A stretch of 64,000 nt of DNA, from the NCBI GenBank assembly GCA_964457585.1, contig CAYWFU010000007.1, positions 5,275 to 69,274 on the forward strand, read 5' to 3'. This DNA comes from an uncultured bacterium (lineage in GTDB: Bacteria > JACRDZ01). Of the stretch, positions 2,541 through 51,911 are shown one piece after another. The position numbers and the translations under genes were made by a program. How positions within the stretch are numbered: the stretch's first letter is position 1; every line of letters begins with the position of its first letter. Below the pieces are notes generated by a model that was not told where the DNA came from, did not search any database, and worked only from the letters and a program-made list of their open reading frames with translations.

Positions 2541-3557
2541 GTGAATGTGTTAAAAGGTAAATCTATACTAGTTACTGGAGGAACAGGTTCATTTGGTAAA
2601 AAATTTGTAGAAATAGTCTTAAATAAATATCCTGAAATTGAGAGATTAGTTGTTTATTCTCGAGATGAACTTAAGCAATTTGAGATGACCCAGATATTTT
2701 CAGATAAAAAGTTTCCTCAGTTAAGATATTTTATTGGTGATGTAAGGGATAAAGATCGGTTATTTCGTGCTATGGAAGGAATCGATATTGTAGTTCATGC
2801 TGCTGCACTGAAGCAGGTACCTGCTGCTGAGTATAATCCATTTGAAGCAGTGAAGACTAACATTATTGGCGCTCAAAATGTAATTGAAGCTGCTATTGAC
2901 AGAGGAGTTAAGCAGGTAGTAGCTTTAAGTACAGATAAAGCTGCTGCGCCCATTAATCTGTATGGAGCTACAAAACTTTGTTCAGATAAGATTTTTGTTG
3001 CAGCTAATAACTTTAAAGGGAAACATGATATTAAGTTTTCAGTTGTTAGATATGGAAATGTTTTAGGGAGCAGAGGGAGTGTTATTCCATTTTTTATAGA
3101 AAAACGCAAATATGGAGTTGTACCTATCACTGATAAACGAATGACTAGATTTAATATTACTTTAGATGAAGGTGTGAAATTTGTTCTTTTTGCGTTAAAA
3201 AATATGTGGGGAGGAGAGATATTTATACCTAAAATACCAAGTTATCGTATTTTGGATGTAGCAGAAGCTATTGCCCCTGGTGTAAAACAAGAAATAGTGG
3301 GTATTAGACCAGGTGAAAAATTACATGAGGAAATGATTACTGAGACAGATGCATTAAATACTGCAGAGTTCGATAATTATTATGTTATATTCCCATCTTT
3401 GCAATTATGGTCAATAGAGGATTTTATAAGAACATTTAAAGGAAATATGTGTCGGGAAAATTTTAAATATAACAGTGAAATGAATACTGATTGGCTTACT
3501 GTTGAAAGGATAAGAGAATTAATTAAGCAACATATAGATCCAAATTTCTTAGCTTAA
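2541..3557 (+). CDS. pseB: UDP-N-acetylglucosamine 4,6-dehydratase (inverting), PseB
   Basis: ILVTGGTGSFGK Rossmann motif and YSRDELKQFEM, closely like Campylobacter PseB/FlaA1; ~336 aa. AGGAG at 2535-2539 suggests the real start is the GTG at 2547 rather than 2541. Confidence 0.8.
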   Translation: MNVLKGKSILVTGGTGSFGKKFVEIVLNKYPEIERLVVYSRDELKQFEMTQIFSDKKFPQLRYFIGDVRDKDRLFRAMEGIDIVVHAAALKQVPAAEYNPFEAVKTNIIGAQNVIEAAIDRGVKQVVALSTDKAAAPINLYGATKLCSDKIFVAANNFKGKHDIKFSVVRYGNVLGSRGSVIPFFIEKRKYGVVPITDKRMTRFNITLDEGVKFVLFALKNMWGGEIFIPKIPSYRILDVAEAIAPGVKQEIVGIRPGEKLHEEMITETDALNTAEFDNYYVIFPSLQLWSIEDFIRTFKGNMCRENFKYNSEMNTDWLTVERIRELIKQHIDPNFLA

Positions 3558-3569
3558 TAGTGAATAAAT

Positions 3570-4736
3570 ATGAGAAATTGTATTCCTTATGGACATCAAT
3601 CTATATCTGAAGAAGATGTTGATGCTGTTATTGAAGTGTTAAGATCTGATTGCCTTACACAGGGTCCAGCGATTGAACGCTTTGAAAAAGCTGTTGCAGA
3701 TTATTGCAACACAAAATACGCGGTAGCGGTAAACAGCGCTACATCTGCGCTTCACATTGCATGTATTGCTGCAGGATTAGGGAAAGGGGATATTTTATGG
3801 ACTTCTCCTAATACATTTGTAGCTTCTGCAAATTGCGGATTATATTGTGGAGCTTCAATAGATTTTGTAGATATAGACTCTCATACATATAATATAAGTA
3901 TAAACGAACTTAAAATTAAATTGAAAGAATCAAAATCAACAGGAAAGCTTCCAAAGATAGTTATTCCTGTTCATTTTGCAGGACAGTCATGCGATATGGA
4001 AGCTATTTCACGTCTTGCAAAACAATATGCTTTTAAAATTATTGAAGATGCATCACATGCAATTGGGGGGGCTTACCAGAAGAGTCGAATAGGGTCATGC
4101 TTTTTTTCCGATATGACTGTTTTTAGTTTTCACCCGGTAAAAATTATTACAACTGGCGAAGGGGGAATGATTCTAACCAACTCCAGGGATTTGTTTAATA
4201 AACTTGTTCTTTTACGTTCACATGGGATTACTAGAAATACTGAATTTATGGCGGGGGAAACACACGGACCATGGTATTACCAGCAGATTGAGTTGGGTTT
4301 TAATTATAGAATGACAGATATGCAAGCAGCTCTTGGGTATAGCCAGATGAAGCGTATTGATGATTTTGTATATCGTCGTAATTATTTGGCAAATCGATAT
4401 ACCCAATTAATGAAAGATTTACCTTTATCTTTACCTTATCTAGATGTAGATTCATATTCAGCTTATCATTTATATGTTATATGTTTAAAGCTGGATAAGA
4501 TTAATAAATCTCATCGTCAAGTATTTGAAGAACTCAGGAGTGCGGGTATTGGTGTGAATTTACATTATATTCCAGTGCATACACAACCTTATTATCAAAA
4601 ATTAGGTTTTAAAATAGGGGATTTCCCAGCAGCAGAAAAATATTATTCAGAAGCGATTAGTTTACCTTTATTTTATTCGCTTAAAGAAAAAGATCAAGAT
4701 TATATTATTAATTCCATAATAGAAGTATTAAAATGA
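3570..4736 (+). CDS. pseC: DegT/DnrJ/EryC1 PLP-dependent aminotransferase, PseC-like
   Basis: IPYGHQSISEEDVDAV...LTQGP N-terminus and overall DegT-family fold; immediately follows pseB; stop overlaps next start (ATGA). Confidence 0.75.
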   Translation: MRNCIPYGHQSISEEDVDAVIEVLRSDCLTQGPAIERFEKAVADYCNTKYAVAVNSATSALHIACIAAGLGKGDILWTSPNTFVASANCGLYCGASIDFVDIDSHTYNISINELKIKLKESKSTGKLPKIVIPVHFAGQSCDMEAISRLAKQYAFKIIEDASHAIGGAYQKSRIGSCFFSDMTVFSFHPVKIITTGEGGMILTNSRDLFNKLVLLRSHGITRNTEFMAGETHGPWYYQQIELGFNYRMTDMQAALGYSQMKRIDDFVYRRNYLANRYTQLMKDLPLSLPYLDVDSYSAYHLYVICLKLDKINKSHRQVFEELRSAGIGVNLHYIPVHTQPYYQKLGFKIGDFPAAEKYYSEAISLPLFYSLKEKDQDYIINSIIEVLK

Positions 4737-5461
4737 AAATAGTTATAATTGTTCAGGCGAGAATGACATCTGTTCGATTGCCAGGTAAAGTTTTAAAAGA
4801 AGTGCTTAATAAACCACTGTTAGAATATCAAATAGAAAGACTCAAACGTGTAGCTTATAAAGATGAAATAATAGTTGCAACAACTTTAAACAATACTGAT
4901 CAGCCGATTGTTGAATTATGTAATAAATTATTAATATCTTTTTATCGCGGACCAGAAGATGATGTGTTATCCCGTTATTATAATGCAGCTTTATATACAA
5001 ATGCGGATGTTATTATTAGAGTAACTTCGGATTGTCCTATCATTGATCCAAATGTAATTGATAAAACCATACGTTTTTATCTTGATAATAATTCTAAATT
5101 TGATTATGTTTCTAATTGCTTGAAACGTACTTATCCAAGAGGGATGGATACTGAAGTTTTTCCTTTTAGAGTATTAAAAGAAGCTTATAATGAAGCAACA
5201 AAAAAAATGGAGAGAGAACACGTTACTTCATTTATTCATAAACAACCTGACCGTTATCGTTTAGGTAATTTTTTTTATTATCAAGATAAAAGTAATCATA
5301 GATGGACAGTTGATATGCCTGAAGATTTTGAACTGATAAAAAAGATTATTGAAAATCTTTATATGAAAAATCAGGAATTTACTTTAGAAGATGTATTAAA
5401 AATGTTTGAAGAAGATCCTAATCTTTTTTTAATAAATGCACATATTGAACAAAAAGTTTGA
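4733..5461 (+). CDS. pseF: nonulosonic-acid cytidylyltransferase (CTP_transf_3; PseF by synteny, SpsF/KdsB-like sequence)
   Basis: MKIVIIVQARMTSVRLPGKVL N-terminal nucleotide-binding motif of the KdsB/NeuA/SpsF superfamily; sits in the canonical pseB-pseC-pseF position. Confidence 0.6.
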   Translation: MKIVIIVQARMTSVRLPGKVLKEVLNKPLLEYQIERLKRVAYKDEIIVATTLNNTDQPIVELCNKLLISFYRGPEDDVLSRYYNAALYTNADVIIRVTSDCPIIDPNVIDKTIRFYLDNNSKFDYVSNCLKRTYPRGMDTEVFPFRVLKEAYNEATKKMEREHVTSFIHKQPDRYRLGNFFYYQDKSNHRWTVDMPEDFELIKKIIENLYMKNQEFTLEDVLKMFEEDPNLFLINAHIEQKV

Positions 5462-5490: not shown

Positions 5491-6111
5491 ATGGGAAATT
5501 TTAAAACAGAGCAAGAAAAGTTTTGGGCTGGTAATTTTGGAGATGAATACACCTCTAGAAATCAAGGTGTAAAATGTATAGCCAGCAATCTTGCATTATT
5601 TGCAAAGATTCTAAATGAAACCAAGACTATTAAATCTGTAATTGAATTTGGTGCAAATTTAGGATTAAATTTATTAGCGATTAAACAACTTTTACCAGAG
5701 GCTAAGTTATCAGCTATAGAGATTAATTTAAAAGCAGTTGAGTATTTAAATAAAATTGACGATATAAAAGTTTACCATAAATCAATTCTCGATTTTTTAC
5801 CTGAATGTAATCACGATTTAGTGCTTATCAAAGGGGTATTGATTCATATCAATCCTGACAGCCTGCCACAAGTTTACGATTCGCTTTATAATACAAGCAG
5901 TCGTTATATTTGTATTGCTGAATATTATAATCCAAGTCCAGTTGAAGTTATTTATAGGGGTGAAAAAGGTAAATTGTTTAAACGTGATTTTGCTGGTGAA
6001 ATGTTAGATAGATTTAAAGACCTTCAGTTGGTTAATTACGGTTTTGTTTATCGCAGGGATGAAAAATTTCCGCAAGATGATATCACTTGGTTTTTATTAG
6101 AAAAAAAATAA
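5491..6111 (+). CDS. SAM-dependent methyltransferase, pseudaminic-acid-biosynthesis-associated methylase-like
   Basis: Motif I VIEFGANLGLNL; ~200 aa. Placement inside the pse cluster matches the Pse-associated methylase family as I recall it. Confidence 0.5.
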   Translation: MGNFKTEQEKFWAGNFGDEYTSRNQGVKCIASNLALFAKILNETKTIKSVIEFGANLGLNLLAIKQLLPEAKLSAIEINLKAVEYLNKIDDIKVYHKSILDFLPECNHDLVLIKGVLIHINPDSLPQVYDSLYNTSSRYICIAEYYNPSPVEVIYRGEKGKLFKRDFAGEMLDRFKDLQLVNYGFVYRRDEKFPQDDITWFLLEKK

Positions 6112-6138: not shown

Positions 6139-7284
6139 ATGAATTATTGCAAGAGATGTGTTATGCCTGATACAAAACCGGATCTTTATATAGATCAGGA
6201 AGGCGTTTGTAATGCATGCAGGAGTTATGAAAATAGGAAGAGTATTAATTACGATCAACGTAAAAAAGAATTATTAACAATACTTGATAAATATAGATCA
6301 AAAGATGGAAAAAATTGGGATTGTATTATACCTGTCAGCGGGGGAAAAGATAGTCATTATCAAGTTATTAGAATGCTTCAATTTGGAATGAATCCATTAT
6401 GTGTAACAGCTTCAACATGTGACCTTTCAGAAATTGGGCGAAAAAATATTGAAAATATAAAAAAACTTGGAGTGGATTATTTGGAATTTTCTCCAGATAA
6501 AATCATAAGAAGAAAACTAAATCGAATAGGTTTAACTCAAGTTGGAGATATCTCATGGCCTGAGCATGTAGGGATATTTACTATTCCCGTAAGAGCGGCA
6601 GTTCAATATAATGTTCCTTTACTTATATGGGGAGAAAATTCGCAACATGAGTATGGTGGACCTGCATCTGCTAGTGAAAATAATATATTAAATAGGCAAT
6701 GGCTTGAAGAGTTTGGAGGGTTATTAGGATTACGTGTTTCTGATATTATTGGTTTGGATGGAATAGAAGAAAAGCATCTTATTCCTTATAATTATCCTGG
6801 TGATGAAGAACTTAAGAGAATCGGCGTTACAGGAGTATTTCTCGGGCATTATATTCCATGGGATGGTTATTCAAATGCTTTAATAGCTCAGGCTCATGGG
6901 TTTACAACATTGAATACTACTGTTGAGGGTTCTATTGTAAATTATGAGAATTTAGATAATTATCATACGGGTATTCATGATTATTTTAAGTTTTTGAAAT
7001 TTGGTTTTGGCCGTGCAACTGATATAGCCTGTCTTCATATAAGAAGAGACCGTATTACCCGTCAGGATGGTATTGAGTTGATAAATAAGCATGATGGTAA
7101 ATTCCCATGGACATATTTAGGAAAACCTATTGAACAGATTCTTTATCCGCTTGACCTAACGATTGATGAGTTTATAAAAATCTGTGATCGCTTCACAAAT
7201 AAGAAAATATTTCGTACAAATTCAAAAGGTGAGTTGTGTAAGGATAAGCATGGTAATTTAATTCTTATTAATAGTTGCAAATAA
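6139..7284 (+). CDS. N-acetyl sugar amidotransferase (WbuX/PseA-like, PP-loop ATPase)
   Basis: N-terminal Cys cluster CKRCVMPDT...CNAC, PP-loop SGGKDS. Accompanied downstream by HisH-like and HisF-like genes, as in the WbuX/Y/Z triad. Confidence 0.75.
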   Translation: MNYCKRCVMPDTKPDLYIDQEGVCNACRSYENRKSINYDQRKKELLTILDKYRSKDGKNWDCIIPVSGGKDSHYQVIRMLQFGMNPLCVTASTCDLSEIGRKNIENIKKLGVDYLEFSPDKIIRRKLNRIGLTQVGDISWPEHVGIFTIPVRAAVQYNVPLLIWGENSQHEYGGPASASENNILNRQWLEEFGGLLGLRVSDIIGLDGIEEKHLIPYNYPGDEELKRIGVTGVFLGHYIPWDGYSNALIAQAHGFTTLNTTVEGSIVNYENLDNYHTGIHDYFKFLKFGFGRATDIACLHIRRDRITRQDGIELINKHDGKFPWTYLGKPIEQILYPLDLTIDEFIKICDRFTNKKIFRTNSKGELCKDKHGNLILINSCK

Positions 7285-7347
7285 CCCAAGTTAAAGTATT
7301 GTTATAATAAAAAATTATTAATATAGTAAAAAGAAAGATGAAAAGTT

Positions 7348-8292
7348 ATGCATAATTTACCATTTCCAAGAGTTATCCGAATAGAACCGGCTAGCTTATG
7401 TAATCTAAAATGTTCACATTGTCCTACAGGGACTATTAAATTAGAACGTGGGATAATGGACATAACAACATTTCAGATTGTTATTGAAAATATAAAAAAA
7501 AATATTGATTTTATAAAAGTAGCAGTAATGTATCATGGAGGGGAACCTCTTATTAACAAAGACCTGTCCATGATGATATCAGAAGTAAAAGATATAGGTA
7601 TCCCCTTTGTAAAGACTGTATCAAACGGAATGTTTCTAAATGAAAAATCGACTGAAGCTTTAGTTAAAAGCGGGTTAGATAGTATTGAAATTTCCATTGA
7701 TGCAACAAGTTCAGAAATTAGCGATTTTGTTAGAAAAAATAGCAACTCAAAAAAAATAATGGAGAACATAAAAAGATTTATATCTATTAAAGATGAGTTA
7801 AAATTAAGCACTCCAGAGGTTTTTATTGCTACAACCCAATTCAAAGACAAAGCATCTACATTTGTTGAAGCTCAGGTTCCTAAATACCTTCTGGATGAAT
7901 TTCGGGATTTATATAAGGAGAAAAAGCTTAATTTCATATCGACTTACGCAATGCTATGGCCTCACATGGAAGTAGACACATCAATATATGATGTATTTTG
8001 TATTAAAGAGTCAAAAGGAGCCAATGATACCTGCGATCACCTTAATAATACTATGACAATAAGATGGAATGGGGATATTGTCCCTTGTTGTTATGACCTT
8101 ACAAGTAGATATGTGATTGGCAACATCCATTCTGAAAAACTTTCAGAGATATGGAATAATGCTAGGCACAAAGCAATAAGGGATGGAATATTAAACAAAA
8201 AGTTCATTGGGCCTTGCAAGAGTTGCAATATGGTATTACCTGGTAATTATATATCATTGAAAGAAGAAGTAATACGCAGAGTCACAGGATAA
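7348..8292 (+). CDS. radical SAM enzyme with C-terminal SPASM/twitch-like Cys-rich domain
   Basis: CNLKCSHCPTG (Cx3Cx2C) near N-terminus; C-terminal NGDIVPCCYD...GPCKSCN auxiliary-cluster motif. Confidence 0.75.
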   Translation: MHNLPFPRVIRIEPASLCNLKCSHCPTGTIKLERGIMDITTFQIVIENIKKNIDFIKVAVMYHGGEPLINKDLSMMISEVKDIGIPFVKTVSNGMFLNEKSTEALVKSGLDSIEISIDATSSEISDFVRKNSNSKKIMENIKRFISIKDELKLSTPEVFIATTQFKDKASTFVEAQVPKYLLDEFRDLYKEKKLNFISTYAMLWPHMEVDTSIYDVFCIKESKGANDTCDHLNNTMTIRWNGDIVPCCYDLTSRYVIGNIHSEKLSEIWNNARHKAIRDGILNKKFIGPCKSCNMVLPGNYISLKEEVIRRVTG

Positions 8293-8296
8293 TATT

Positions 8297-8911
8297 ATGA
8301 GCTTGATTGTAATAGATTATGGTATGAGCAACCTTGGATCAATAAGACGTTCATTTGAGGAATGCGGTGCAGACGTAATTGTTTCTGATGATCCTCAAGA
8401 TTTGAAATTAGCAAGTCATATTGTACTTCCCGGTGTAGGTTCGTTTTCAGATGGCATGATAAATCTCCAGAAAAAGGGATGGGTACATTCTATTAAAGAG
8501 GCGGTTGTTGAAAAGCAAATCCCTTTACTTGGTATTTGTCTAGGGATGCAGCTACTTGCAGACAAAGGCTATGAGGGTGGTAATATTACAGGTCTTGAGC
8601 TGATACATGGGGAAGTTAAAAAATTAGAAACTAATTCTCAATCAGAAAGAATTCCGCATGTGGGATGGAATGAAATTATTAAAAATATTTCATCTCCGCT
8701 TTTTTATGAAATACCGGATAGATCGGATTTTTATTTTGTTCATAGTTATCATTTTATACCTAATCAAAGAGAAAATATTTTAGCTTTTACACCATATTGT
8801 GATAATTTTGTTTCGGCTGTTGTAAATAATAATGTTTATGGAGTACAATTCCATCCGGAAAAAAGTGGACGTTTTGGAATGCGGCTTCTTAAAAATTTTA
8901 TTAATATATAA
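8297..8911 (+). CDS. imidazole-glycerol-phosphate-synthase HisH-like glutamine amidotransferase (WbuY-like)
   Basis: Class-I GATase motifs GICLGMQLL, HVGWN, FHPEKS. Confidence 0.85.
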   Translation: MSLIVIDYGMSNLGSIRRSFEECGADVIVSDDPQDLKLASHIVLPGVGSFSDGMINLQKKGWVHSIKEAVVEKQIPLLGICLGMQLLADKGYEGGNITGLELIHGEVKKLETNSQSERIPHVGWNEIIKNISSPLFYEIPDRSDFYFVHSYHFIPNQRENILAFTPYCDNFVSAVVNNNVYGVQFHPEKSGRFGMRLLKNFINI

Positions 8912-8926: not shown

Positions 8927-9715
8927 TTGTTAAAAGTTCGTTTGATACCTACTTTACTATTGAAGGATGTTGGTTTAGTAAAAGGTATTGGTTTTAACAG
9001 CTGGCGCAGAGTTGGTACAGTTATGCCCGCAATCAAGGTTTATAATACCAGACAAGTGGATGAGCTTATTATTGTTGATATTACGGCATTTAGAGAAGGT
9101 CGTTTACCAGATTGTGATCAAATAAAAGATTTTTCAGCGGATTGTTTTGTACCTTTAACCATAGGCGGCGGGATACGTAGTTTTGATGATATAAGGAATT
9201 TACTTCGTGCCGGAGCAGATAAAGTATGTATCAATAGCATAACTTATGAAAAACCTGAATTTATCAAAGAAGCTGCAAATAAATTTGGTTCGCAGTGTAT
9301 AGTTGTAAGCATTGATGTGGGGAAAAAAAATGATGGAAGTTATGAGTGTTTTAGTTATTCAGGATCAAAATCAACAGGAAAAGATCCTGTAACTTGGGCT
9401 AAAGAGATTGAATCTTTAGGTGCGGGAGAATTATTAATCACATCTATTGAAAGAGATGGAACTATGCAGGGATACGATTTAGAGTTAATTAAAAAAATTA
9501 CTAAAAGTGTAAATATTCCAGTAATTGCTTCAGGTGGTTGTGGAAATTATAATCACATGTATGAAGTTATATCTTATTCCGGAGCTTCTGCTGTAGCAGC
9601 AGCAAGTATTTTTCATTTTACTCATCAAACACCAATGGAGGCAAAGCTTTTTTTATCATCTAAAGGAATGCCGGTAAGAAACGTAAATATTAATAAGAAT
9701 ATAATAGAGAATTAA
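8927..9715 (+). CDS. HisF-like cyclase subunit (WbuZ-like)
   Basis: MLKVRLIPTLLLKD N-terminus like HisF (RIIPCLDVKDG), (beta/alpha)8 pattern, GGGIRS. TTG start. Confidence 0.85.
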   Translation: MLKVRLIPTLLLKDVGLVKGIGFNSWRRVGTVMPAIKVYNTRQVDELIIVDITAFREGRLPDCDQIKDFSADCFVPLTIGGGIRSFDDIRNLLRAGADKVCINSITYEKPEFIKEAANKFGSQCIVVSIDVGKKNDGSYECFSYSGSKSTGKDPVTWAKEIESLGAGELLITSIERDGTMQGYDLELIKKITKSVNIPVIASGGCGNYNHMYEVISYSGASAVAAASIFHFTHQTPMEAKLFLSSKGMPVRNVNINKNIIEN

Positions 9716-9717: not shown

Positions 9718-10752
9718 ATGTCGATAAATGTTATGTTTAGAGCAGATTCGTCATCGATTATTGGTACAGGTCATATAATGCGTTGTTTGACTTTGGCAGA
9801 TTCTCTAAAAGAAAAAGGTGTTGAAATAAGTTTTATTAGTATTAAAGAAAAAGGAAATTTAATACAATTAATTGAAGAAAAAGGATATAAGGTTTATAAA
9901 TTACCTATAAAATCTGATGAGAAAAAAACCTTAGATATATTAAAAAACCAAAAATCTACAATAGATTGGCTGATAATAGACCATTATAATATTGATACTT
10001 TTTGGGAAACCAAATTTAATAAATTTGTTAAAAAAATAATGGTAATTGATGATCTGGCAAATAGAAAACATAATTGTGAGCTTTTATTAGATCAAAATTA
10101 TTATCTTAAAAAAAATAGATATAAAGGATTAATTTCTAATAAATGTAAGCAATTAATTGGCCCTGATTTTGCATTAATTAAAAAAGAGTTTTTAAAGTTA
10201 CGAAAAAAATTAGAACCACGTACAGGAAAAGTAAAACAAATATTGGTTTTTATGGGTGGTGCAGATTTTACAAATGAAACTTCAAAAATACTAAAAGCTA
10301 TTAAATTGTTGAATAATCCTGGTATTAAATTTAATATTGTTATAGGCCCTGCTAATCAGTATTACAATAAATTAAAAAAAGAAATAGCCAAAATATCAAA
10401 TGCTGTTTGTTTTTATAATATAAATAATATGGCCGAATTAATGTTTAATGCTGATTTATGTATCGGAGCATGCGGTTCTACAACATGGGAAAGATTAATT
10501 ATGGGTATTCCAAGTATTGTTATTATTATTGCTGATAATCAAAAAGAAAATGCTGAAAGTCTTGATAAAAAAGAATGTATAATAAATCTTGGATTTTATA
10601 ATAAGGTTACTATTAAAAACGTATTTACAAAAATAGAATATTTAATTAACAATCCTAATATTATTAAACGAATGAGCAAAAAAGCGCAAAAAATTGTTGA
10701 TGGCAAAGGTACTGGCAGGGTTACAAATATTTTATTAAAGGCAGGTCAATAA
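9718..10752 (+). CDS. pseG: UDP-2,4-diacetamido-2,4,6-trideoxy-beta-L-altropyranose hydrolase, PseG
   Basis: FRADSSSIIGTGHIMRCLTLA matches the PseG N-terminal signature [21 protein letters not shown]; GT-B-like length. Confidence 0.8.
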   Translation: MSINVMFRADSSSIIGTGHIMRCLTLADSLKEKGVEISFISIKEKGNLIQLIEEKGYKVYKLPIKSDEKKTLDILKNQKSTIDWLIIDHYNIDTFWETKFNKFVKKIMVIDDLANRKHNCELLLDQNYYLKKNRYKGLISNKCKQLIGPDFALIKKEFLKLRKKLEPRTGKVKQILVFMGGADFTNETSKILKAIKLLNNPGIKFNIVIGPANQYYNKLKKEIAKISNAVCFYNINNMAELMFNADLCIGACGSTTWERLIMGIPSIVIIIADNQKENAESLDKKECIINLGFYNKVTIKNVFTKIEYLINNPNIIKRMSKKAQKIVDGKGTGRVTNILLKAGQ

Positions 10753-11456
10753 TGTCAATAAAAAACAGGATAGTAATTGCAACTATTAAGTCATGGAATA
10801 TAGCAAACGCAATAAAATTTAAGAATATTCATAGCGAAGAATTTGAAACGTTAATAATTACTAAAAAAGAAGATTTGAATTTAAATTATATAAAAGATTT
10901 TGATCCAAAATATATTTTTTTCCCGCATTGGTCATGGATAATTAAAAATGATATATACGATAATTTTGATTGTATAGTTTTTCATATGACAGATTTACCA
11001 TTTGGAAGAGGAGGCAGTCCCCTTCAGAATTTAATTATAAATAAAATTTACAATACAAAAATTTCTGCCATTAAAGTAGACGGTGAAATAGATACTGGTA
11101 AAATTTATTTTAAAGAAGATTTTTATATAGGATTGGGTAATGCAGATGAGATCTTTCAAAGAATTTCAGAATTAATATTTTTTAAAATGATACCAAATAT
11201 TTTGAAAAACAATATAATTCCACAAGAACAAACAGGCGATATAACTTATTTCAACAGAAGAACTCCGGAAGATAGCGATATTTCTAAAGCTAGTTTAAAC
11301 AATTTTGATGATTTATATGATTTTATTAGAATGTTAGATGGGGAAGGTTATCCAAATGCTTTTTTAAAACTTGGAAAATTTAAAATATCCTTTAAAGAAA
11401 TATCTGAAAAATCTGATAAAGTTACAGGAAGATTTGAAATTGAGGAGGAAAAATGA
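10752..11456 (+). CDS. formyltransferase-domain protein (Fmt/PurN N-terminal-like)
   Basis: HMTDLPFGRGGSPLQNLII resembles the formyltransferase catalytic core (His...Asp, SLLP-like loop); overlaps neighbours by ATGA. Confidence 0.55.
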   Translation: MSIKNRIVIATIKSWNIANAIKFKNIHSEEFETLIITKKEDLNLNYIKDFDPKYIFFPHWSWIIKNDIYDNFDCIVFHMTDLPFGRGGSPLQNLIINKIYNTKISAIKVDGEIDTGKIYFKEDFYIGLGNADEIFQRISELIFFKMIPNILKNNIIPQEQTGDITYFNRRTPEDSDISKASLNNFDDLYDFIRMLDGEGYPNAFLKLGKFKISFKEISEKSDKVTGRFEIEEEK

Positions 11457-12130
11457 AAAGAGTTCTTATTGTTGCTGCTCATCCTGACGATGAAGTTTTA
11501 GGTTGTGGCGGAACTGCTGCGAGATTAATAAAAAACAACTATGAAATATTTACTCTTATTCTTGGCGAAGGAATTACTTCAAGAGATTATATAAAAAATA
11601 TAGAAAATCGAAAAAAAGAAATTGATGAATTGAAACATGAAATAAAACAAGCAAATAAAATTATTGGGATAAAAAACGTTTTCACTTTTGATTTTCCTGA
11701 TAACAGGTTTGATACAATTGCTTTATTGGATATTGTAAAAGCTATTGAAAAAATAAAAAATGAAGTTAACCCGGAAATTATATTTACACATTATGAAAAA
11801 GATTTAAACATTGATCATAAGATTACTTTTAACGCAGTAATGACTGGAACCAGACCATTTGGTAAAGAAATTGTAAAAGAAATATATTCTTTTGAGATTC
11901 CGTCTTCAACAGAATGGAATTGTCCTTTGAGTTTCTCCCCTGATGTTTTTTTTGATATTGATAATACACTTGAATGTAAATTAAAAGCAATAGAAGCATA
12001 TAAAACAGAATTAAAAGAATTCCCTCATCCAAGATCTATTGAAGGGATTAAACGGCACGCAAAATATTGGGGTATATGTGTTGGTTTAAATCAAGCCGAA
12101 GCATTCAAAAGTATAAGAGTAATAAAATAA
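11453..12130 (+). CDS. PIG-L/LmbE family N-acetylglucosaminyl deacetylase
   Basis: VLIVAAHPDDEVLGCGGT zinc-binding AHPDDE motif. Confidence 0.85.
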   Translation: MKRVLIVAAHPDDEVLGCGGTAARLIKNNYEIFTLILGEGITSRDYIKNIENRKKEIDELKHEIKQANKIIGIKNVFTFDFPDNRFDTIALLDIVKAIEKIKNEVNPEIIFTHYEKDLNIDHKITFNAVMTGTRPFGKEIVKEIYSFEIPSSTEWNCPLSFSPDVFFDIDNTLECKLKAIEAYKTELKEFPHPRSIEGIKRHAKYWGICVGLNQAEAFKSIRVIK

Positions 12131-12142: not shown

Positions 12143-12691
12143 TTGAATATACTGGTTAACTCAATGAAAAAATTAAAAAAAAATTTTAAGATTGAAGACG
12201 GCATTTTTATTAATTTTGTTAATATTAATGTTGAAGAAAAAGAAATAGTTCGAAATTGGAGAAATGATAAAAATATCAGACAATGGATGTACAATGATCA
12301 TAAAATTTCTTCTTTGGAGCATGCTGAATTTTTAGAAAAATTAAAATATGATAAAAAAAATTTTTATTGGCTTATAAAAAAAAATCAAGAGTATATAGGT
12401 GTTATTTATTTTAATAAAGTTGATTTAAAAAATAAAAATGCATATTTTGGTATTTATACTAATCCTGAAAACTATAAAAAAGGGAATGGGCAATTAATTT
12501 TTAGATATTCAAAAAAAATAATTTTTGAAATAGCTAATTTTCATACAATAAAATTGGAAGTAATTGAAAATAATCATAAAGCTATAAATTTTTATAAAAA
12601 AGTTGGATTTTTCAAAGAAGGAACTTTAAAAGAATTTATTTTTAAAGATGGAAAATGGCTTGATGTAATTATTATGGGCATTGTAAATTAA
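12143..12691 (+). CDS. pseH: GNAT N-acetyltransferase, PseH-like
   Basis: VRNWRND..IRQWM, EHAEFLEKL, YWLI....IGVIYFN......AYFGIY parallels Campylobacter PseH (KWRNHPDINQFM ... FGLY). Likely true start at Met 12164. Confidence 0.75.
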   Translation: MNILVNSMKKLKKNFKIEDGIFINFVNINVEEKEIVRNWRNDKNIRQWMYNDHKISSLEHAEFLEKLKYDKKNFYWLIKKNQEYIGVIYFNKVDLKNKNAYFGIYTNPENYKKGNGQLIFRYSKKIIFEIANFHTIKLEVIENNHKAINFYKKVGFFKEGTLKEFIFKDGKWLDVIIMGIVN

Positions 12692-12727: not shown

Positions 12728-13780
12728 TTGAATCCAATTCAAATTAGTAATAAAAAAATAGGGCAGGGTTATGAACCATTTATTATTGCTGAAATGTCAG
12801 GGAATCATAATCAGTCATTAGAAAGAGCTTTAGCTATAATTGAAGCAGCAGCAAAAACAGGTGTCCATGCTTTGAAGCTGCAAACTTATACGGCAGATAC
12901 AATGACTTTAGATATTGAAGAAGGGGATTTTTTTATTGAAGATCCAAAAAGTTTATGGAAAGGAACTTCATTATATAAACTTTACCAAAAAGCTTACACT
13001 CCATGGGAATGGCATGAGCCTATTTTTAAGCGGTGTAAAGAATTGGGCTTAATCGCGTTTAGTACTCCTTTTGATGAGACATCTGTGGATTTTTTAGAAA
13101 AATTGAATGTCCCAGCATATAAAATAGCATCATTTGAAAATAATCATATACCTTTAATTCGTAAAGTTGCATCTACGGGAAAACCTATGATTATATCTAC
13201 CGGTATGGCAACAATAGCAGAGCTTGATGAAACAATCAGAACAGCAAGAAATTCCGGCTGTAATGATATAATATTGCTCAAATGTACAAGTACATATCCT
13301 GCTACACCGGAAGATGCAAATATCATGACCATACCGCATATGCACAAATTATTCAATGTGCAGGTTGGCTTATCCGACCACACAATGGGAATAGGTGTTG
13401 CAATAGCAAGTGTAACATTGGGAGCAACAGTTGTTGAAAAACATTTCACACTAAGACGTGCTGATGGTGGTGTGGATTCAGCATTTTCAATAGAACCGGA
13501 AGAAATGCAAATGCTTGTAAAAGAAACTAATAATGCATGGCAGGCGTTAGGAAAAGTTAATTACGGCCCAACTAAAACAGAAAAATCATCGATGAGATAT
13601 CGAAGATCTCTTTATGTGATTCAAGATATTGAAGCAGGAGGGCAATTCACCCATGATAATATTAAGGCAATTAGACCGGGTTTTGGTTTACCAACTAAAT
13701 ATATTGAAATAATTATTGGAAGAAAAGCAAAAAAAATAATTAAAAAAGGCACTCCTTTATATTGGGATTTAATTTTTTAA
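12728..13780 (+). CDS. pseI: pseudaminic acid synthase, PseI (NeuB family, full length with C-terminal SAF domain)
   Basis: PFIIAEMSGNHNQSLERALAIIEAAAKTGVHALKLQTY NeuB TIM-barrel signature plus C-terminal antifreeze-like domain; TTG start. Confidence 0.85.
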   Translation: MNPIQISNKKIGQGYEPFIIAEMSGNHNQSLERALAIIEAAAKTGVHALKLQTYTADTMTLDIEEGDFFIEDPKSLWKGTSLYKLYQKAYTPWEWHEPIFKRCKELGLIAFSTPFDETSVDFLEKLNVPAYKIASFENNHIPLIRKVASTGKPMIISTGMATIAELDETIRTARNSGCNDIILLKCTSTYPATPEDANIMTIPHMHKLFNVQVGLSDHTMGIGVAIASVTLGATVVEKHFTLRRADGGVDSAFSIEPEEMQMLVKETNNAWQALGKVNYGPTKTEKSSMRYRRSLYVIQDIEAGGQFTHDNIKAIRPGFGLPTKYIEIIIGRKAKKIIKKGTPLYWDLIF

Positions 13781-13846: not shown

Positions 13847-14611
13847 ATGAAATTGAAAAATAAAATAAGTCAAGACAAAATTTATAGCACAGAGGAACAA
13901 CTTAGTGTTAAAACACAATTGGGTGATTTGTTTGAGTCTGATAGAGGGCAAACATCTGATAAATTAAGCGCTTTTACAAAGTATATTACCAGACAAGATT
14001 TAAGTCTTTTTCTGGCACGATATGAAATTTTTAAAAAAGTCATGGGTATTAAAGGCTCAATTATTGAATGTGGAGTTTATTTTGGAAATGGGCTTATGAC
14101 TTATTCACAACTGAGTGCTGCATTGGAACCAATAAATTATAATCGACGAATTATAGGTTTTGATACATTTTGCGGGAACAAGGGGGAAACGAAAAACGAT
14201 TTACCTAGTAAAGCAGCTGCTGGTTTAACGCAAGCACAATATGATATTGATTCAGAAAATGAAATACTAAAATGTATAAATATTTATGATAAAAATCGTT
14301 TTTTAAATCATATTTCTAAAGTAGAGTTGGTAAGGGGAGATATTATTAAAACAATTCCACAATATATTATTGAAAATCCACACTTAATAGTGAGTATTTT
14401 AGAGCTATCTGTAAATCTTTATGAGCCGACTAAAGTCGCATTAAAACATATCTTACCAAGAATGACAAAAGGGTCAATTATTTCGGTTAATACTTTGAAT
14501 GAAGGGATTTTTCCTGGTGTAACTTTGGCTATTAAAGAAGAATTGGGAATTAATAATGTGTGTATTCAAAGTTTTGAATATGCACCAAACCTCTCTTATA
14601 TTGTTTTATAA
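13847..14611 (+). CDS. TylF/MycF-family class I SAM-dependent (O-)methyltransferase
   Basis: IIECGVYFGNGLMTYS and IIGFDTFCG resemble macrocin-O-methyltransferase family motifs (E.GV..G.S ... FDSF.G). Confidence 0.5.
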   Translation: MKLKNKISQDKIYSTEEQLSVKTQLGDLFESDRGQTSDKLSAFTKYITRQDLSLFLARYEIFKKVMGIKGSIIECGVYFGNGLMTYSQLSAALEPINYNRRIIGFDTFCGNKGETKNDLPSKAAAGLTQAQYDIDSENEILKCINIYDKNRFLNHISKVELVRGDIIKTIPQYIIENPHLIVSILELSVNLYEPTKVALKHILPRMTKGSIISVNTLNEGIFPGVTLAIKEELGINNVCIQSFEYAPNLSYIVL

Positions 14612-14654
14612 TTTAATATCTAATCACCATTCTTAAAATTCAAGGATAAAATAA

Positions 14655-15944
14655 ATGAAGTTTCGTTATATGAAAAGATTTATCGATGAATTAATAGAAT
14701 ATTTTCTTGTGAATTTAAAGGGTTATAAGAATTCAAAAGATTCTGAACTATTAAACAATACTATTTCTTTGAAAAATAAGTACAAAGGAGAGCGGCTGTT
14801 TATATTTTTTTCAGGGGTGAGTATAAAAAAAATAAATTTGGATATTTTCAACAACGAATATACAATGGCAACAAATTATTTTGTACTTCATTATAAGTTT
14901 AAAAAACTTAATTTTGATTTTTATAGTATGGTTGCTTCTTGGAATATGAAAGAAGCCATTAACTATGAGTGGCTTACCGGTATTGTCTATAATAAAGTGA
15001 AACCGGAAATGAAGATATTTCTTCATTCCTCATCGCATAGCTGGCTTTCAAATATACCTTCATATAAACCCGAGATTACGTATTATGTTTCACCCTTACC
15101 TAATGGATTTCCTGATTATTGCAATGTGCAGGATTCAATGAAAGGAGTGTTCACTTGTAGCATATCTTTAGCAATACATATGGGATTTAAAGAAATTTAC
15201 CTTGTTGGTTCAGATTATACAAAATCACCGCAAATTGTAGGACATTTCTATGATGGGGAATATGTTAAGCAAGAGCCAACCAAAGAATTGTTAGAAATGC
15301 ACACTAATGTAAATGAATATGCGAAAAAAAATGGGGTAAAAATTTTTAATATAATTGAAGACGATTTTAAAAGTCCCATATTTGAGGGTATTAATATAAA
15401 TGACATTTATGCTCTTTTTAATAATCAAAATAAACAGTCTTATACTGATAAATTGATTGATAGGATCGATGCTTTAGTATTCGATTTTGATGGTGTATTG
15501 ACAGACAATTTAGTATATGTTGATCAGAACGGTAATGAACAGGTTTGCTGTAATCGAGGTGATGGACTTGCTTTTGATGCGCTTCGCAAGCTTAATATAA
15601 AGACTTTTATTATATCTACCGAAACAAATTCTGTTGTGGCAGAACGGGCAAAAAAATTAAAAATTCCTGTACAACAAGGTATTGCCAATAAACTGGAAGC
15701 ATTAATATCTTTAGCAAAAAAAGAAAATATAGATATAGCTCGTATATTGTATGTTGGAAATGATTTAAACGATCTGGAAGTTATGAAAACATGCGGGTTG
15801 TCTGCCTGTCCTGCGGATAGTCATGAAAGAATTAAAGAGATTAGCCGTTTTAAATTAAAAACTTTAGGTGGAAAAGGACTCGTTCGAGAGTTAGTAGAAG
15901 ATTTATTAAAAATAAATATTGAAGAAATTCTATATAAAAAATAA
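14655..15944 (+). CDS. fusion protein: N-terminal DUF115/MptE-like (Maf-type) domain + C-terminal KdsC-type HAD sugar-acid phosphate phosphatase
   Basis: N-terminal half: LFIFFSGVSI ... SISLAIHMGFKEIYLVGSDYT, the DUF115 pattern. C-terminal ~165 aa: ALVFDFDGVLTDN...GDGLA...YVGNDLNDLEVM...ADSH, the KdsC HAD motifs I-IV. Confidence 0.7.
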   Translation: MKFRYMKRFIDELIEYFLVNLKGYKNSKDSELLNNTISLKNKYKGERLFIFFSGVSIKKINLDIFNNEYTMATNYFVLHYKFKKLNFDFYSMVASWNMKEAINYEWLTGIVYNKVKPEMKIFLHSSSHSWLSNIPSYKPEITYYVSPLPNGFPDYCNVQDSMKGVFTCSISLAIHMGFKEIYLVGSDYTKSPQIVGHFYDGEYVKQEPTKELLEMHTNVNEYAKKNGVKIFNIIEDDFKSPIFEGININDIYALFNNQNKQSYTDKLIDRIDALVFDFDGVLTDNLVYVDQNGNEQVCCNRGDGLAFDALRKLNIKTFIISTETNSVVAERAKKLKIPVQQGIANKLEALISLAKKENIDIARILYVGNDLNDLEVMKTCGLSACPADSHERIKEISRFKLKTLGGKGLVRELVEDLLKINIEEILYKK

Positions 15945-15964
15945 AAAAAGGAGGAATTGAATTA

Positions 15965-16795
15965 ATGTTTATTATTGCAGAGATAGGAATCAATCATAAT
16001 GGTGATTTAAAAATCGCCAAACAGCTTATTGATGTTGCAAAGATCGCTGGTTGTGATGCAGTCAAATTCCAAAAAAGAACCATAGATTTGGTTTACACTA
16101 AGGAATTATTGGATTCACCGCGGGAAAGTCCATGGGGAAAAACACAGCGAGCCCAAAAAGAAGGCTTAGAGTTTAATTATGCTCAGTATAAAGAAATAGA
16201 CGATTATTGTCGTCATAAAGAAATTGAATGGTTTGCGTCTGCCTGGGATCATGAAAGCCAGAAATTCATAAGACAGTTTGATTTTAAACATAATAAAGTT
16301 GCATCAACAATGATAGTTGATGAGAAATTTTTAAAAATGGTTGCGAGCGAAGGAAAACATACATTTATATCTACAGGGATGAGTTCCCTGGATATAATCG
16401 ATAAAGCTGTTCAAATTTTCAGGGATATGAAATGTTCATTTGAACTTATGCATTGTGTTGCTACATATCCTATGAAAGATGAAGATGCAAATCTTAATTG
16501 TATTCCTATGCTTCGTGAGCGATATAAATGCGATGTTGGATATAGCGGACATGAAACAGGTTTGGCTATATCCTACGCTGCTGCGGCATTTGGAATATCC
16601 TCACTTGAAAGACATATAACATTAGACCGCGCTATGTATGGTTCCGATCAATCTGCTTCTGTTGAACCTATAGGTATTATGCAATTGGTTGGAGGTGTGC
16701 GAAAAATTGAACGTGTGCTTGGAAATGGTAAAAAAACAATTATAGAAGCAGAAATTCCAATTGCAAAAAAACTTCGTGCGCATATTCAAGGGTAA
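15965..16795 (+). CDS. NeuB-family sugar-phosphate/PEP-condensing synthase, short form lacking the SAF domain
   Basis: MFIIAEIGINHNGDLKIAKQLIDVAKIAGCDAVKFQK NeuB catalytic barrel; only 276 aa, no C-terminal antifreeze-like domain. Confidence 0.75.
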   Translation: MFIIAEIGINHNGDLKIAKQLIDVAKIAGCDAVKFQKRTIDLVYTKELLDSPRESPWGKTQRAQKEGLEFNYAQYKEIDDYCRHKEIEWFASAWDHESQKFIRQFDFKHNKVASTMIVDEKFLKMVASEGKHTFISTGMSSLDIIDKAVQIFRDMKCSFELMHCVATYPMKDEDANLNCIPMLRERYKCDVGYSGHETGLAISYAAAAFGISSLERHITLDRAMYGSDQSASVEPIGIMQLVGGVRKIERVLGNGKKTIIEAEIPIAKKLRAHIQG

Positions 16796-16806
16796 AGGGG
16801 AAAATT

Positions 16807-18246
16807 ATGATTATTAAAGATAAACGTAAATTTTTAAATGAAGAAACATGTTATAGTCCTGATTTTCATATAGCGGACTATGAATTGGGAAAATATTCTT
16901 TTAACGAATCCGCACTTTCAAATCTTGGAATTAAATCAACTATGACCAAATCTGAAGACTTATGGAAACGCGGGCGTAAAATTATTCCCTGTGGTACTCA
17001 GACACTTGGAAAGAGCCCGATAGGTTTTATTGATGGCGTTGCCCCTAAATATTTATCACATGGAAAAGGCGGCCGAGTCTGGGATGTTGACGGAAATGAA
17101 TATATAGATTGCTGGCTTGCCTGTTTACCAATAACGTTTGGATATCGTGTTGAAGAAATAGATAATGCTATAATCGAGCAGGTAACAAAAAGCGGAATTA
17201 CTTTTTCCCTAATGCATTCATTAGAGGTGGAAGTTGCTGAAATGCTGCAGGAAGATATTTCAATTGCTGAACAAATAAGGTTTACAAAAAACGGTTCTGA
17301 TGTTTGTGAAGCTGCTGTTCGTTTAGCAAGATATTTAACAAAACGAGATAAAGTTATTACTTTAGGTTATCATGGTTTTCATGATTGGTATATAGCAAGC
17401 ACTGATCGTAATGGCGGAATTCCTGATTGCATAAAAGAAAGAACTTTGCGTTTTGCTTATAATAATATTGATAATTTAAAAAAATTGTTTGATACAAATA
17501 AAAATGAGATAGCCTGTGTAATTATGGAGCCTACTATTTTTGAAGCTCCTAAGGATGATTTTTTAGCTAAAGTAAAAGATGTTTGTCATAAAAATGGAGC
17601 ATTATTGATTTTTGATGAAATGCTCACTGGTTATAGATTCTCAACTAACGGTGCAATGTCTTTTTTTGAAGTTGAGCCGGATTTAGCTACTTTCGGAAAA
17701 GGAATTGCTAATGGAATGCCGATAGGCATTCTCGTTGGATTAGAAAAACACATGCGAGGATTTGAAGAAGTTTTTCTTTCAAGCACTTATGGCGGGGAGA
17801 CTCTTACTCTTGCGGCAACATTAGCAGGTCTTAAGTATCACCGTAAGAATGATGTTGTTGGCCACATGTGGCAAATAGGGAAAATTGTTCTGGATAATTT
17901 CAGACAATCGATCAAAAAATTTAATTTAGAAAAAAACATATCAGCTATTGGTTACCCTGTACGACAAACATTGACTTTTAAAAAAGATAATGGGGAACCT
18001 GATTATAGCTTAGCAGGTCTTTTTCAACAGGAAATGCTGAAAAATGGTGTGCTATGCAATTCAGGACTTGGTTTTTGTCATAAACATTCTGCTAATGATG
18101 CTATGCATGTAGCAAGAAGTTTTGACAAAGCATGCTTATTAATGCAAGAAGCTATAAAATCCGGTAACCTTGAACGTTATTTAAAAGGTAACCCTGCGCA
18201 ACCTGTTTTTCGTGGATTGCGCGATCAGAAAGTAACATCAAATTAA
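16807..18246 (+). CDS. class-III PLP aminotransferase (glutamate-1-semialdehyde aminomutase-like)
   Basis: Fold-type I class III pattern; the catalytic-Lys region contains DEMLTGYRFSTNGAMSFF, with the lysine in ATFGKGIANGMPIGIL. Confidence 0.75.
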   Translation: MIIKDKRKFLNEETCYSPDFHIADYELGKYSFNESALSNLGIKSTMTKSEDLWKRGRKIIPCGTQTLGKSPIGFIDGVAPKYLSHGKGGRVWDVDGNEYIDCWLACLPITFGYRVEEIDNAIIEQVTKSGITFSLMHSLEVEVAEMLQEDISIAEQIRFTKNGSDVCEAAVRLARYLTKRDKVITLGYHGFHDWYIASTDRNGGIPDCIKERTLRFAYNNIDNLKKLFDTNKNEIACVIMEPTIFEAPKDDFLAKVKDVCHKNGALLIFDEMLTGYRFSTNGAMSFFEVEPDLATFGKGIANGMPIGILVGLEKHMRGFEEVFLSSTYGGETLTLAATLAGLKYHRKNDVVGHMWQIGKIVLDNFRQSIKKFNLEKNISAIGYPVRQTLTFKKDNGEPDYSLAGLFQQEMLKNGVLCNSGLGFCHKHSANDAMHVARSFDKACLLMQEAIKSGNLERYLKGNPAQPVFRGLRDQKVTSN

Positions 18247-18255
18247 AAGGACATC

Positions 18256-51323: not shown

Positions 51324-51911
51324 ATGTTTAATAAAGAAATAAATGTAAACCCGAATAATGCATTACCAATACATCGATTTACAATTGATGAATATTATCA
51401 TTTAGCTGAAGCAGGCATTTTACATGAGGATGATAATGTTGAGCTTATCGAAGGGAGGATAATTGACATGACACCTATTGGAAGTAAACATGCGTCATGT
51501 GTAAAGCGTATTATAGAATTATTAACTGATAGATTACAAAAAAGAGCAACTATTGGGGTACAAGATCCTATTGATTTAAATGAACAAACTGAGCCAGAAC
51601 CGGATATAACTATTTTAAAAAAACGTTCGGATTTTTATGCAGAACATCATCCTCGTCCTGAAGATGTATTGTTAATTATTGAAGTAGCAGACAGTTCTAT
51701 TAACTATGATCGTTCAATTAAAATTCCGCTTTATGCTAAAAGTGGAATTCAGGAAGTATGGTTAATAAATCTTATAGAAAATATTATTGAAGTATATCAA
51801 AATCCATCACAGATAGGATATAAAATTTGTAAAAAAGTATATAAAGAAGATACAATTTCACCATTATGTTTTTCTGATATTAATATAAAAGCATCGGAAA
51901 TAGTTGGATAA
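51324..51911 (+). CDS. Uma2-family (DUF820) putative endonuclease
   Basis: FTIDEYYHLAEAGIL....VELIEGRIIDMTPIGSKHASCV...DITIL...PDLVIEV-like layout of PD-(D/E)xK Uma2 proteins. Confidence 0.75.
   Translation: MFNKEINVNPNNALPIHRFTIDEYYHLAEAGILHEDDNVELIEGRIIDMTPIGSKHASCVKRIIELLTDRLQKRATIGVQDPIDLNEQTEPEPDITILKKRSDFYAEHHPRPEDVLLIIEVADSSINYDRSIKIPLYAKSGIQEVWLINLIENIIEVYQNPSQIGYKICKKVYKEDTISPLCFSDINIKASEIVG

Follow-up and report, generated by a model that had tools for sequence, protein, structure and literature searches.

The Radical SAM Gene and the Surrounding Locus

Pseudaminic (Pse) and legionaminic (Leg) acids are sialic-acid-like sugars of flagella, capsules, and O-antigens, and they affect motility, immune recognition, and the sensitivity of the cell to phages and serum. 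The gene considered here lies in a predicted Pse locus of an uncultured bacterium (GTDB lineage JACRDZ01; GenBank assembly GCA_964457585.1), between positions 5,275 and 69,274 of contig CAYWFU010000007.1; this whole stretch of 64,000 nucleotides, with a GC content of 30.7%, is referred to as the window, and all coordinates are counted from its first letter. At 7348..8292 on the forward strand, the window encodes a radical S-adenosylmethionine (SAM) protein of 314 amino acids (aa), hereafter rSAM, whose open reading frame begins with an ATG 63 nt downstream of the stop codon of a WbuX-type N-acetyl sugar amidotransferase gene (6139..7284) and ends 4 nt upstream of the start of a HisH-like glutaminase gene (8297..8911). 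A first-pass annotation, made from the sequence alone, had described this gene and the short gaps separating it from WbuX and HisH, and the arrangement is borne out by the sequence and by Pfam, which identifies a Radical_SAM domain (PF04055, 66.0 bits against a cutoff of 29.5) at residues 13-145 and a SPASM domain (PF13186, 58.2 bits against 21.5) at residues 229-294. Since homologues reach E = 1e-127 and share the N-terminal start at the PFPRV motif, and since the AlphaFold2 model has a pLDDT of 93.6 (pTM 0.91), 7348..8292 is a genuine gene. Neither of the flanking gaps contains a terminator-like site, and the 63-nt spacer (7285..7347) holds a single promoter-like match, such matches occurring at chance level in this AT-rich DNA (24 observed, 24.8 expected); co-transcription of rSAM with WbuX and HisH is plausible from these features. 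Recent insertion of the gene is ruled out on composition, as its GC content (0.325) falls within the range of its neighbors (0.20-0.35), only the value at third codon positions (GC3) being somewhat higher.

By NCBIfam equivalog cutoffs and Pfam, the genes around rSAM are assigned to what appears to be a complete Pse pathway, all of them on the forward strand. PseB (2541..3557; TIGR03589, 530.6 bits, cutoff 407.75), PseC (3570..4736; TIGR03588, 555.4 bits, cutoff 423.5), PseG (9718..10752; TIGR03590, 321.5 bits, cutoff 153.55), PseH (12143..12691; TIGR03585, 157.9 bits, cutoff 93.1), and PseI (12728..13780; TIGR03586, 510 bits, cutoff 340.25) all exceed their equivalog cutoffs. The role of PseF would fall to a CTP_transf_3 cytidylyltransferase (4733..5461; PF02348, 104.7 bits), one of two of this type in the window, both of which stay below the cutoff of 205.7 for the PseF model TIGR03584 (26.5 bits for this one, 117.0 for the other). 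It is followed by a Pse-associated methylase (5491..6111; TIGR03587, 299.3 bits, cutoff 112.05) and by the amidotransferase triad, formed by WbuX (PseA/PtmG-like; TIGR03573, 340.7 bits, cutoff 203.2), the HisH-like glutaminase or WbuY (generic model TIGR01855, 227.2 bits, cutoff 105.4), and the HisF-like WbuZ (8927..9715), whose score is marginal (TIGR03572, 301.8 bits, cutoff 299.7). Between PseG and PseH lie a formyltransferase-like protein (10752..11456; PF21553, 62.6 bits, with the ArnA and Fmt models far under cutoff) and an LmbE/BshB-like deacetylase (11453..12130; TIGR04001, 61.3 bits, under cutoff). The pathway sits within a Wzz/Wzy-type surface-polysaccharide locus, which begins near the window start with a Wzi fragment and Wzz and reaches as far as an initiating sugar transferase gene (52587..53957). 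PseA and PtmG have been annotated as acetamidino synthases (PMC13317340).

A Twitch Domain Related to BtrN

In an alignment of 26 rSAM homologues with 41-62% identity, the CX3CX2C motif (C18, C22, and C25; 7399..7422, forward strand), which would hold the SAM-cleaving [4Fe-4S] cluster, is invariant in 26/26 sequences, as is G64-G65-E66, and outside this motif the only invariant cysteines are C229, C247, C248, C290, and C293; in a larger family set (n = 120), 92 members have exactly five cysteines in the C-terminal region. The SPASM-like cysteine cluster of the first-pass annotation stands in so far as the protein passes both PF13186 and TIGR04085, but it is a truncated, Twitch-type version of that domain. 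The TIGR04085 scan, applied to the C-terminal part alone, scores above cutoff (33.0 against 27) over model positions 1-66 of 93 only. A full SPASM domain has the seven-cysteine motif CX9-15GX4C...CX2CX5CX3C...C, and the pattern in rSAM, C229-x12-G-x4-C247(C248)...C290-x2-C293, falls short of the full two-cluster arrangement. Four of the five invariant cysteines, C229, C247, C290, and C293 (Twitch region 8032..8226, forward strand), align with C169, C187, C232, and C235 of BtrN (numbering of chain 4m7s_A), the ligands of its single auxiliary cluster, and both this alignment and their invariance mark them as the predicted auxiliary ligands.

The relationship with BtrN extends beyond the ligands. 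When the family profile was compared with PDB sequences, BtrN was the best match (E 1.4e-21, including a common LCKNCN), the following ones being at about 1e-10 and confined to the N-terminal core, and a Foldseek search of the rSAM model against the PDB also placed BtrN first (E 1.5e-15, TM 0.72 by BtrN length), ahead of SuiB, BlsE, DesII, SkfB, MoaA, anSME, SpeY, and EpeE. Taken together, these comparisons predict that rSAM has, in all likelihood, the single-auxiliary-cluster architecture of a Twitch enzyme.

The best NCBIfam matches are maturase families (TIGR04317 at 106.8 bits, TIGR04133, and TIGR04311), and in a sister group with lower scores the N-terminal part consists of TPR repeats, a module for protein interaction; both features would fit a protein or peptide maturase, either an enzyme of peptides that are made by the ribosome and modified post-translationally (RiPPs) or an activase or cofactor maturase for a neighboring enzyme, as in most SPASM families. 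Nevertheless, the scores of rSAM with NCBIfam family models all stay far below cutoff (380 bits in the case of TIGR04317), the CX3CX2C motif begins at residue 18 and leaves no space for an N-terminal peptide-recognition (RRE) domain, the gaps of 63 and 4 nt are too small for a precursor peptide, sugar-nucleotide enzymes are the conserved neighbors in every sampled phylum, and the closest structure is that of a small-molecule enzyme. A maturase is therefore very unlikely, and the sugar role, which the first-pass annotation had set against grouping with RiPP enzymes, is far better supported by the near confinement to Pse loci, the kinship with BtrN, the position of the motif, and the lack of room for a precursor.

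The Invariant Cysteine Doublet

The fifth invariant cysteine, C248, directly follows the predicted cluster ligand C247, the two forming a doublet (tgt-tgt, 8086..8091, forward strand) in which C248 is the extra residue and a candidate hydrogen-atom donor. The motif G-x4-C-C-[Y/F/H]-D is present in 120/120 homologues and is retained down to 29% identity; among long relatives, extended at the N-terminus by 100 residues or more, 22 of 24 keep the motif, and TPR repeats were found in all seven that were scanned. A TPR-bearing sister group of the representative library (P0185, P0193, P0208, P0212, P0214, and P0238; about 205-260 bits), in which 150-370 residues of N-terminal TPR repeats are joined to the rSAM/Twitch core, likewise keeps C-C-Y-D.

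In the alignments, C248 is paired with F188 of BtrN and with D277 of anSME, the proposed active-site base beside the substrate. A distant rSAM/Twitch paralog (about 25% identity) was detected in spirochaete-type loci (L004:18713-19870, L025:12759-13946, and L031:8006-9187), where it adjoins a second cytidylyltransferase and has an Asp after the cluster ligand (P-C-D-x-D), as in anSME; because of this Asp, the residue after the ligand may track the type of reaction, as the sequences suggest. A local stretch of NeoN, D248-C249-Y250-S251-V252, resembles the C-C-Y-D of rSAM, a weak lead given that it is too short for alignment. Among NCBIfam models, the Twitch region of rSAM best matches the C-terminus of the ‘spiro-SPASM’ proteins (TIGR04321), and the N-terminal part of this same model is matched by the window cytidylyltransferase at 4733..5461.

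Distribution and Gene Order of the Family

A word-indexed protein search returned at least 357 homologue clusters, all generically named, from sources such as cyanobacteria, Nitrospinota, Planctomycetes, Clostridium, Desulfobotulus, Limnohabitans, and the archaeon Methanocalculus, and 2,364 proteins, paralogous subfamilies counted in, reached E ≤ 1e-30 when 1.84 billion representatives were searched with a profile. The genomic context was surveyed forward from rSAM in one genome per species, seeded by rSAM peptide patterns only and with the window proteins compared by tblastn, which gave 54 loci from many phyla; 35 of these, not phylogenetically independent, were well flanked, with at least 4 kb on each side of rSAM. 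Pse-pathway genes occur within 6 kb of rSAM in 31 of the 35 well-flanked loci, PseI being present in 24 and the Pse-associated methylase in 21, and genes of the WbuX/HisH/WbuZ triad in 25, with none in the remaining 10. The rSAM family is thus almost confined to Pse loci, in archaea as well as in bacteria. A triad gene directly adjoins rSAM (<400 nt) in 26 of 32 triad-containing loci, against an estimated 30% or so for random placement among about 12 genes.

The insertion of rSAM into the triad, remarked on in the first-pass annotation, is not special to this window. Methanocalculus alkaliphilus, an archaeon, and Limnohabitans sp., a betaproteobacterium, have exactly the gene order of the window (PseB, PseC, cytidylyltransferase, methylase, WbuX, rSAM, HisH, HisF, PseG), and rSAM also lies between WbuX and HisH in Nitrospirae, SAR324, Verrucomicrobia, and cyanobacteria. 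Other members belong to flagellin glycosylation islands: in Clostridium tagluense, the rSAM module is located between flagellin genes and a Maf gene, and in Magnetococcales, flagellin, FliD, and FliS genes are followed by rSAM and then by the methylase. A rough neighbor-joining tree of rSAM reveals two main placements, between WbuX and HisH and, in a sister clade, after WbuZ. As these placements are largely clade-specific and the GC content of rSAM matches that of its neighbors, the present order appears to derive from a few old rearrangements and the spread of whole cassettes rather than from a recent insertion here. In the locus of Sphaerospermopsis kisseleviana NIES-73 (L045:10001-10884), the rSAM orthologue is broken by a frameshift near residue 175, which reflects either a pseudogene or a sequencing error.

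Outside the Pse and triad sets, no recurrent partner was found, any one cluster occurring in at most 8 of the 59 clustered sequences, and a class-III aminotransferase lies within 6 kb of rSAM in 2 of the 35 well-flanked loci; the lack of a constant partner gene fits a self-sufficient, redox-neutral step.

The reverse question, how often the triad carries rSAM, was addressed by a metagenome scan seeded from the window WbuX, of which the best 80 of 198 matches (WbuX identity 63-79%), a biased set, were considered. In the 62 assessable loci, the gene after WbuX is HisH in 58, rSAM in one (L070), and another gene in three, in line with the initial statement that WbuX, HisH, and WbuZ are normally contiguous. 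Where at least 3 kb of downstream sequence was available, rSAM was present anywhere in 3 of 40 loci and absent from 37, and the rSAM-free loci carry otherwise the same gene set, so that the triad works without it; rSAM is an optional accessory, found in roughly 5-8% of close WbuX relatives. The tight spacing inside the window triad and the frequent adjacency to triad genes elsewhere might have indicated an obligate fourth subunit of the acetamidino machinery, required by WbuX, HisH, and WbuZ, but the predominance of HisH directly after WbuX, the 37 loci without rSAM, and the persistence of rSAM in loci lacking a triad make this extremely improbable and effectively refute it.

In one rSAM-free locus (L079:2544-3362), WbuX and HisH are 820 nt apart, and the gap encodes a class-I SAM methyltransferase, of a type also found in L003, L005, and L010, which rules out a decayed rSAM in that gap. 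Given this methyltransferase, accessory tailoring genes seem to have entered the junction between WbuX and HisH repeatedly.

Association with the Pse Pathway Rather than with the Amidine Group

In three proteins (P0039, P0058, and P0060), the first 55 or so residues of WbuX, a Zn-ribbon, are joined in frame to rSAM (E 4e-13 to 2e-10 against the window WbuX); all four Zn-ribbon cysteines are kept in the complete P0039 and P0058, and P0060 starts inside the first C-x2-C pair. One such Zn-ribbon-rSAM fusion (L139:8001-9206) lies between a 205-aa gene, in the position of the methylase, and PseG, in a locus without the WbuX body, HisH, and HisF and with Pfam families of the Leptospira O-antigen type. 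This configuration can be read as a deletion that took out the amidotransferase and spared rSAM, and the conservation of the Zn-ribbon suggests that it may have a role of its own, e.g., in docking or substrate binding. A different fusion, P0150 (320 bits), combines a GNAT acetyltransferase with rSAM in a Pse locus, after HisH, HisF, and a 401-aa gene in the position of WbuX; the only GNAT-type NCBIfam match of its acetyltransferase domain is PseH, well below cutoff (35.4 against 93.1), and no separate GNAT gene was called in the stretch shown around it. Both fusions connect rSAM with the Pse pathway.

As triad genes are lacking within 6 kb of rSAM in 10 of the 35 well-flanked loci and the L139 lineage has lost the amidotransferase and kept rSAM, the secure link of rSAM is with the Pse pathway and not with the amidine group. 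The earlier suggestion that rSAM acts on the same acetamidino intermediate as the triad consequently goes too far. The same observations bear on the possibility that rSAM subjects the Pse scaffold, or its N-acyl or acetamidino groups, to some other radical chemistry, such as the formation of a C-C or C-N bond (amidine cyclization), a dehydration or deoxygenation, or a decarboxylation like that of BlsE. The usual vicinity of amidotransferase genes, the Pse-associated methylase, or both, the Zn-ribbon kept in the fusion lineage, which hints at a common binding partner or substrate, the presence of BlsE and DesII, sugar-modifying radical SAM enzymes with other outcomes, among the fold matches, and the richness of these loci in tailoring genes, e.g., B12-radical SAM enzymes and methyltransferases, are all compatible with it. 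Nevertheless, the amidine is no obligatory part of the substrate, as the loci without triad genes and L139 indicate, and positive evidence for any particular reaction of this kind is lacking, which renders such chemistry improbable. The overall distribution, instead, points very probably to rSAM as an optional tailoring enzyme of the Pse pathway.

Predicted Reaction

Radical SAM chemistry consists of a reductive cleavage of SAM followed by hydrogen abstraction. For rSAM, the analysis establishes which motifs and fold it has, its kinship with BtrN, and its occurrence in Pse loci, whereas the substrate, the carbon of attack, and a preference for epimerization over oxidation are inferred. The N-terminal [4Fe-4S] cluster (C18/C22/C25) would cleave SAM to give a 5'-deoxyadenosyl radical, which would abstract hydrogen from a carbon in the ring or side chain of some sugar of the Pse pathway; C248, beside the ligand C247, would give a hydrogen back on the opposite face, and the Twitch [4Fe-4S] cluster (C229/C247/C290/C293) would re-reduce the thiyl radical. 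The net outcome would be an epimerization at one carbon, yielding a stereoisomer of acetamidino-Pse that could be built into the surface polysaccharide by the Wzz/Wzy-type locus. In radical SAM epimerases, the closing hydrogen is provided by an active-site cysteine, as in EpeE (C223), NeoN, and PoyD (C372) (PMC5682303, PMC8326336, PMC13012085), and a Twitch-type cluster is the proposed re-reductant of the thiyl radical in EpeE (PMC5682303, PMC8326336). HygY is, according to the title of the corresponding paper (cited in PMC10991966), a Twitch radical SAM epimerase that becomes a dehydrogenase after the mutation of one cysteine. Because of the invariant C248, these epimerase precedents, and the lack of a co-occurring reductase or aminotransferase, epimerization is favored over oxidation and other outcomes, and rSAM can be tentatively considered, by analogy with HygY and NeoN, a radical SAM sugar epimerase with a Twitch domain.

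Some considerations weigh against this proposal. BtrN, the homologue closest to rSAM among solved structures, is a dehydrogenase, and the cysteine at the position of C248 could instead be a base, an alternative cluster ligand, or a structural residue. In addition, the core Pse enzymes are equally similar to those of the window in loci with and without rSAM, so that there is no sign of rSAM altering recognition by PseG, PseI, or WbuX, and this weakly suggests that rSAM may act at a late step of the pathway, although the rSAM-free set had been chosen by WbuX similarity; a closer resemblance of the core enzymes among rSAM-bearing loci was sought and none was found.

In a dehydrogenation of the BtrN type, hydrogen would be removed from a carbinol carbon (e.g., C4 or C8 of Pse, or a hydroxyl-bearing carbon of a UDP-sugar), the Twitch cluster would take the electron, and a keto-sugar would be released, the ketone being the final modification or being later reduced or transaminated by another enzyme. 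BtrN is the closest relative by sequence and fold, with the four Twitch ligands aligned, SpeY, a Twitch sugar dehydrogenase, is among the fold matches, and the two class-III aminotransferases of the window (16807..18246 and 23764..25146) could in principle use a keto product. Nevertheless, neither an aminotransferase nor a reductase is consistently found beside rSAM, as the 2 of 35 loci with a class-III aminotransferase illustrate, the identity with BtrN is only about 18%, an invariant cysteine stands where BtrN has Phe and anSME has Asp, and a change in a single cysteine is what separates an epimerase from a dehydrogenase in a Twitch enzyme, if the title of the HygY paper is followed. Dehydrogenation is, on balance, rather unlikely, and epimerization, tentative as it is, is retained as the working proposal; rSAM probably makes a sugar variant that has not yet been described.

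Significance

In the full-text library that was searched, no paper joins radical SAM enzymes with nonulosonic acids. The few papers in which radical SAM appears together with either pseudaminic acid or the glycosylation of flagellin describe, as far as examined, no such enzyme; in a survey from 2026 that deals with Pse glycosylation of Clostridium flagella, the terms ‘radical SAM’, ‘SPASM’, and ‘Fe-S’ are absent from the text. A Plesiomonas radical SAM protein was dropped as a relevant precedent, as it is a heme-utilization enzyme. In Campylobacter fetus, two phase-variable (poly-G) genes, CFT03427_1545 and CFT03427_1558, are listed as ‘Radical SAM, MoaA/NifB/PqqE/SkfB family’ beside a formyltransferase-domain protein, a short-chain dehydrogenase/reductase (SDR), and methyltransferases (PMC6321876), and they may be relatives of the rSAM family.

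The new element is, therefore, a probable tailoring enzyme of the Twitch radical SAM type that would have been recruited to nonulosonic acid biosynthesis, belonging to a widespread family without a characterized member. It is possible, and this is advanced with reserve, that the family represents the first radical SAM enzyme of nonulosonic acid biosynthesis, turning Pse, acetamidino-Pse, or a precursor into an undescribed stereoisomer or oxidized derivative. To our knowledge, the known diversity of Pse and Leg sugars derives from ordinary chemistry dependent on nicotinamide adenine dinucleotide (NAD), pyridoxal phosphate (PLP), acyl-coenzyme A (acyl-CoA), and methyl transfer from SAM. If the proposal is correct, a new chemical route, the inversion or oxidation at an unactivated carbon, would be added to the Pse pathway, and undescribed sugars would be predicted in many environmental lineages, with cyanobacteria, Nitrospirae, bacteria of candidate phyla, and methanogenic archaea displaying such a sugar on flagellins as well as polysaccharides. 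Enzymes of the BtrN/HygY type would then extend from the pathways of aminoglycoside antibiotics into primary cell-surface glycobiology, and C248 would be the residue that decides between an epimerase and a dehydrogenase.

Other Features of the Polysaccharide Locus

A second nonulosonate-like module follows PseI (13847..20652, forward strand). Its members are a TylF-like methyltransferase, a protein of 429 aa whose C-terminal domain resembles KdsC and KDN-9-phosphatase, a short NeuB (276 aa, without the SAF domain), a class-III aminotransferase like glutamate-1-semialdehyde aminomutase, a sugar-phosphate isomerase/epimerase TIM protein, an SDR, and the PseF-like cytidylyltransferase mentioned above (117 bits against a cutoff of 205.7). 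The same polysaccharide locus contains two B12-binding (class B) radical SAM enzymes (25607..26995 and 47428..48921, both on the forward strand). Relatives of the first one, with 24-34% identity, are located near the Twitch rSAM in about nine loci (L006, L015, L019, L020, L025, L031, L033, L038, and L043), and another B12-radical SAM is present in L141/L142; the B12-radical SAM is a second recurrent radical enzyme of the Pse loci that carry the Twitch rSAM. Among the glycosyltransferase genes are a D-glucuronyl C5-epimerase-like protein (46443..47414, forward strand; PF06662, 172 bits) and a putative endonuclease of the Uma2 family (51324..51911, forward strand), and just beyond the locus, on the reverse strand (55945..60120), lies a gene whose 1391-aa product has six Big_5 Ig-like domains along with many RCC1 repeats.

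Comparison with Known Systems

The module formed by WbuX, WbuY, and WbuZ, which introduces the acetamidino group in Pse and Leg loci, is the system to which the three genes flanking rSAM belong; in its canonical form, it consists of three contiguous genes without a radical SAM partner, in contrast to the window. Among the radical SAM enzymes, BtrN, the 2-deoxy-scyllo-inosamine dehydrogenase of butirosin biosynthesis (PDB 4M7T/4M7S), is the founding Twitch enzyme, which has one auxiliary cluster and oxidizes a hydroxyl of an aminocyclitol. It has the same partial-barrel core and C-terminal Twitch as rSAM, is similarly compact (chains of 269-270 aa, against 314 aa in rSAM), shares LCKNCN and the four aligned ligand cysteines, and acts on a small, amino-sugar-like molecule; the identity of about 18%, the Phe188 in place of Cys248, and its occurrence in an aminoglycoside cluster rather than in surface-glycan Pse loci indicate that it is not an orthologue. 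HygY (hygromycin B) and NeoN (neomycin) are described as one-carbon sugar epimerases with a cysteine hydrogen donor (Cys249 in NeoN), and they serve as mechanistic models for rSAM, their substrates being aminoglycosides and not nonulosonic acids; the donor of HygY is reportedly C183. The resemblance of rSAM to anSME (PDB 4K36-4K39) lies in the aligned GX4C ligand motif, with D277 opposite C248, whereas the SPASM domain of anSME is a full one with two auxiliary clusters, its substrate is a protein, and an Asp occupies the position after the ligand. EpeE/YydG, a Twitch-type peptide epimerase, has one auxiliary cluster in an extended Twitch domain, is among the fold matches of rSAM, and uses Cys223 as hydrogen-atom donor, and it differs in its peptide substrate and RiPP operon, the sequence likeness being restricted to the N-terminal core. 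In summary, rSAM resembles the Twitch sugar enzymes of aminoglycoside pathways, such as BtrN, HygY, and SpeY, and is an orthologue of none of them.

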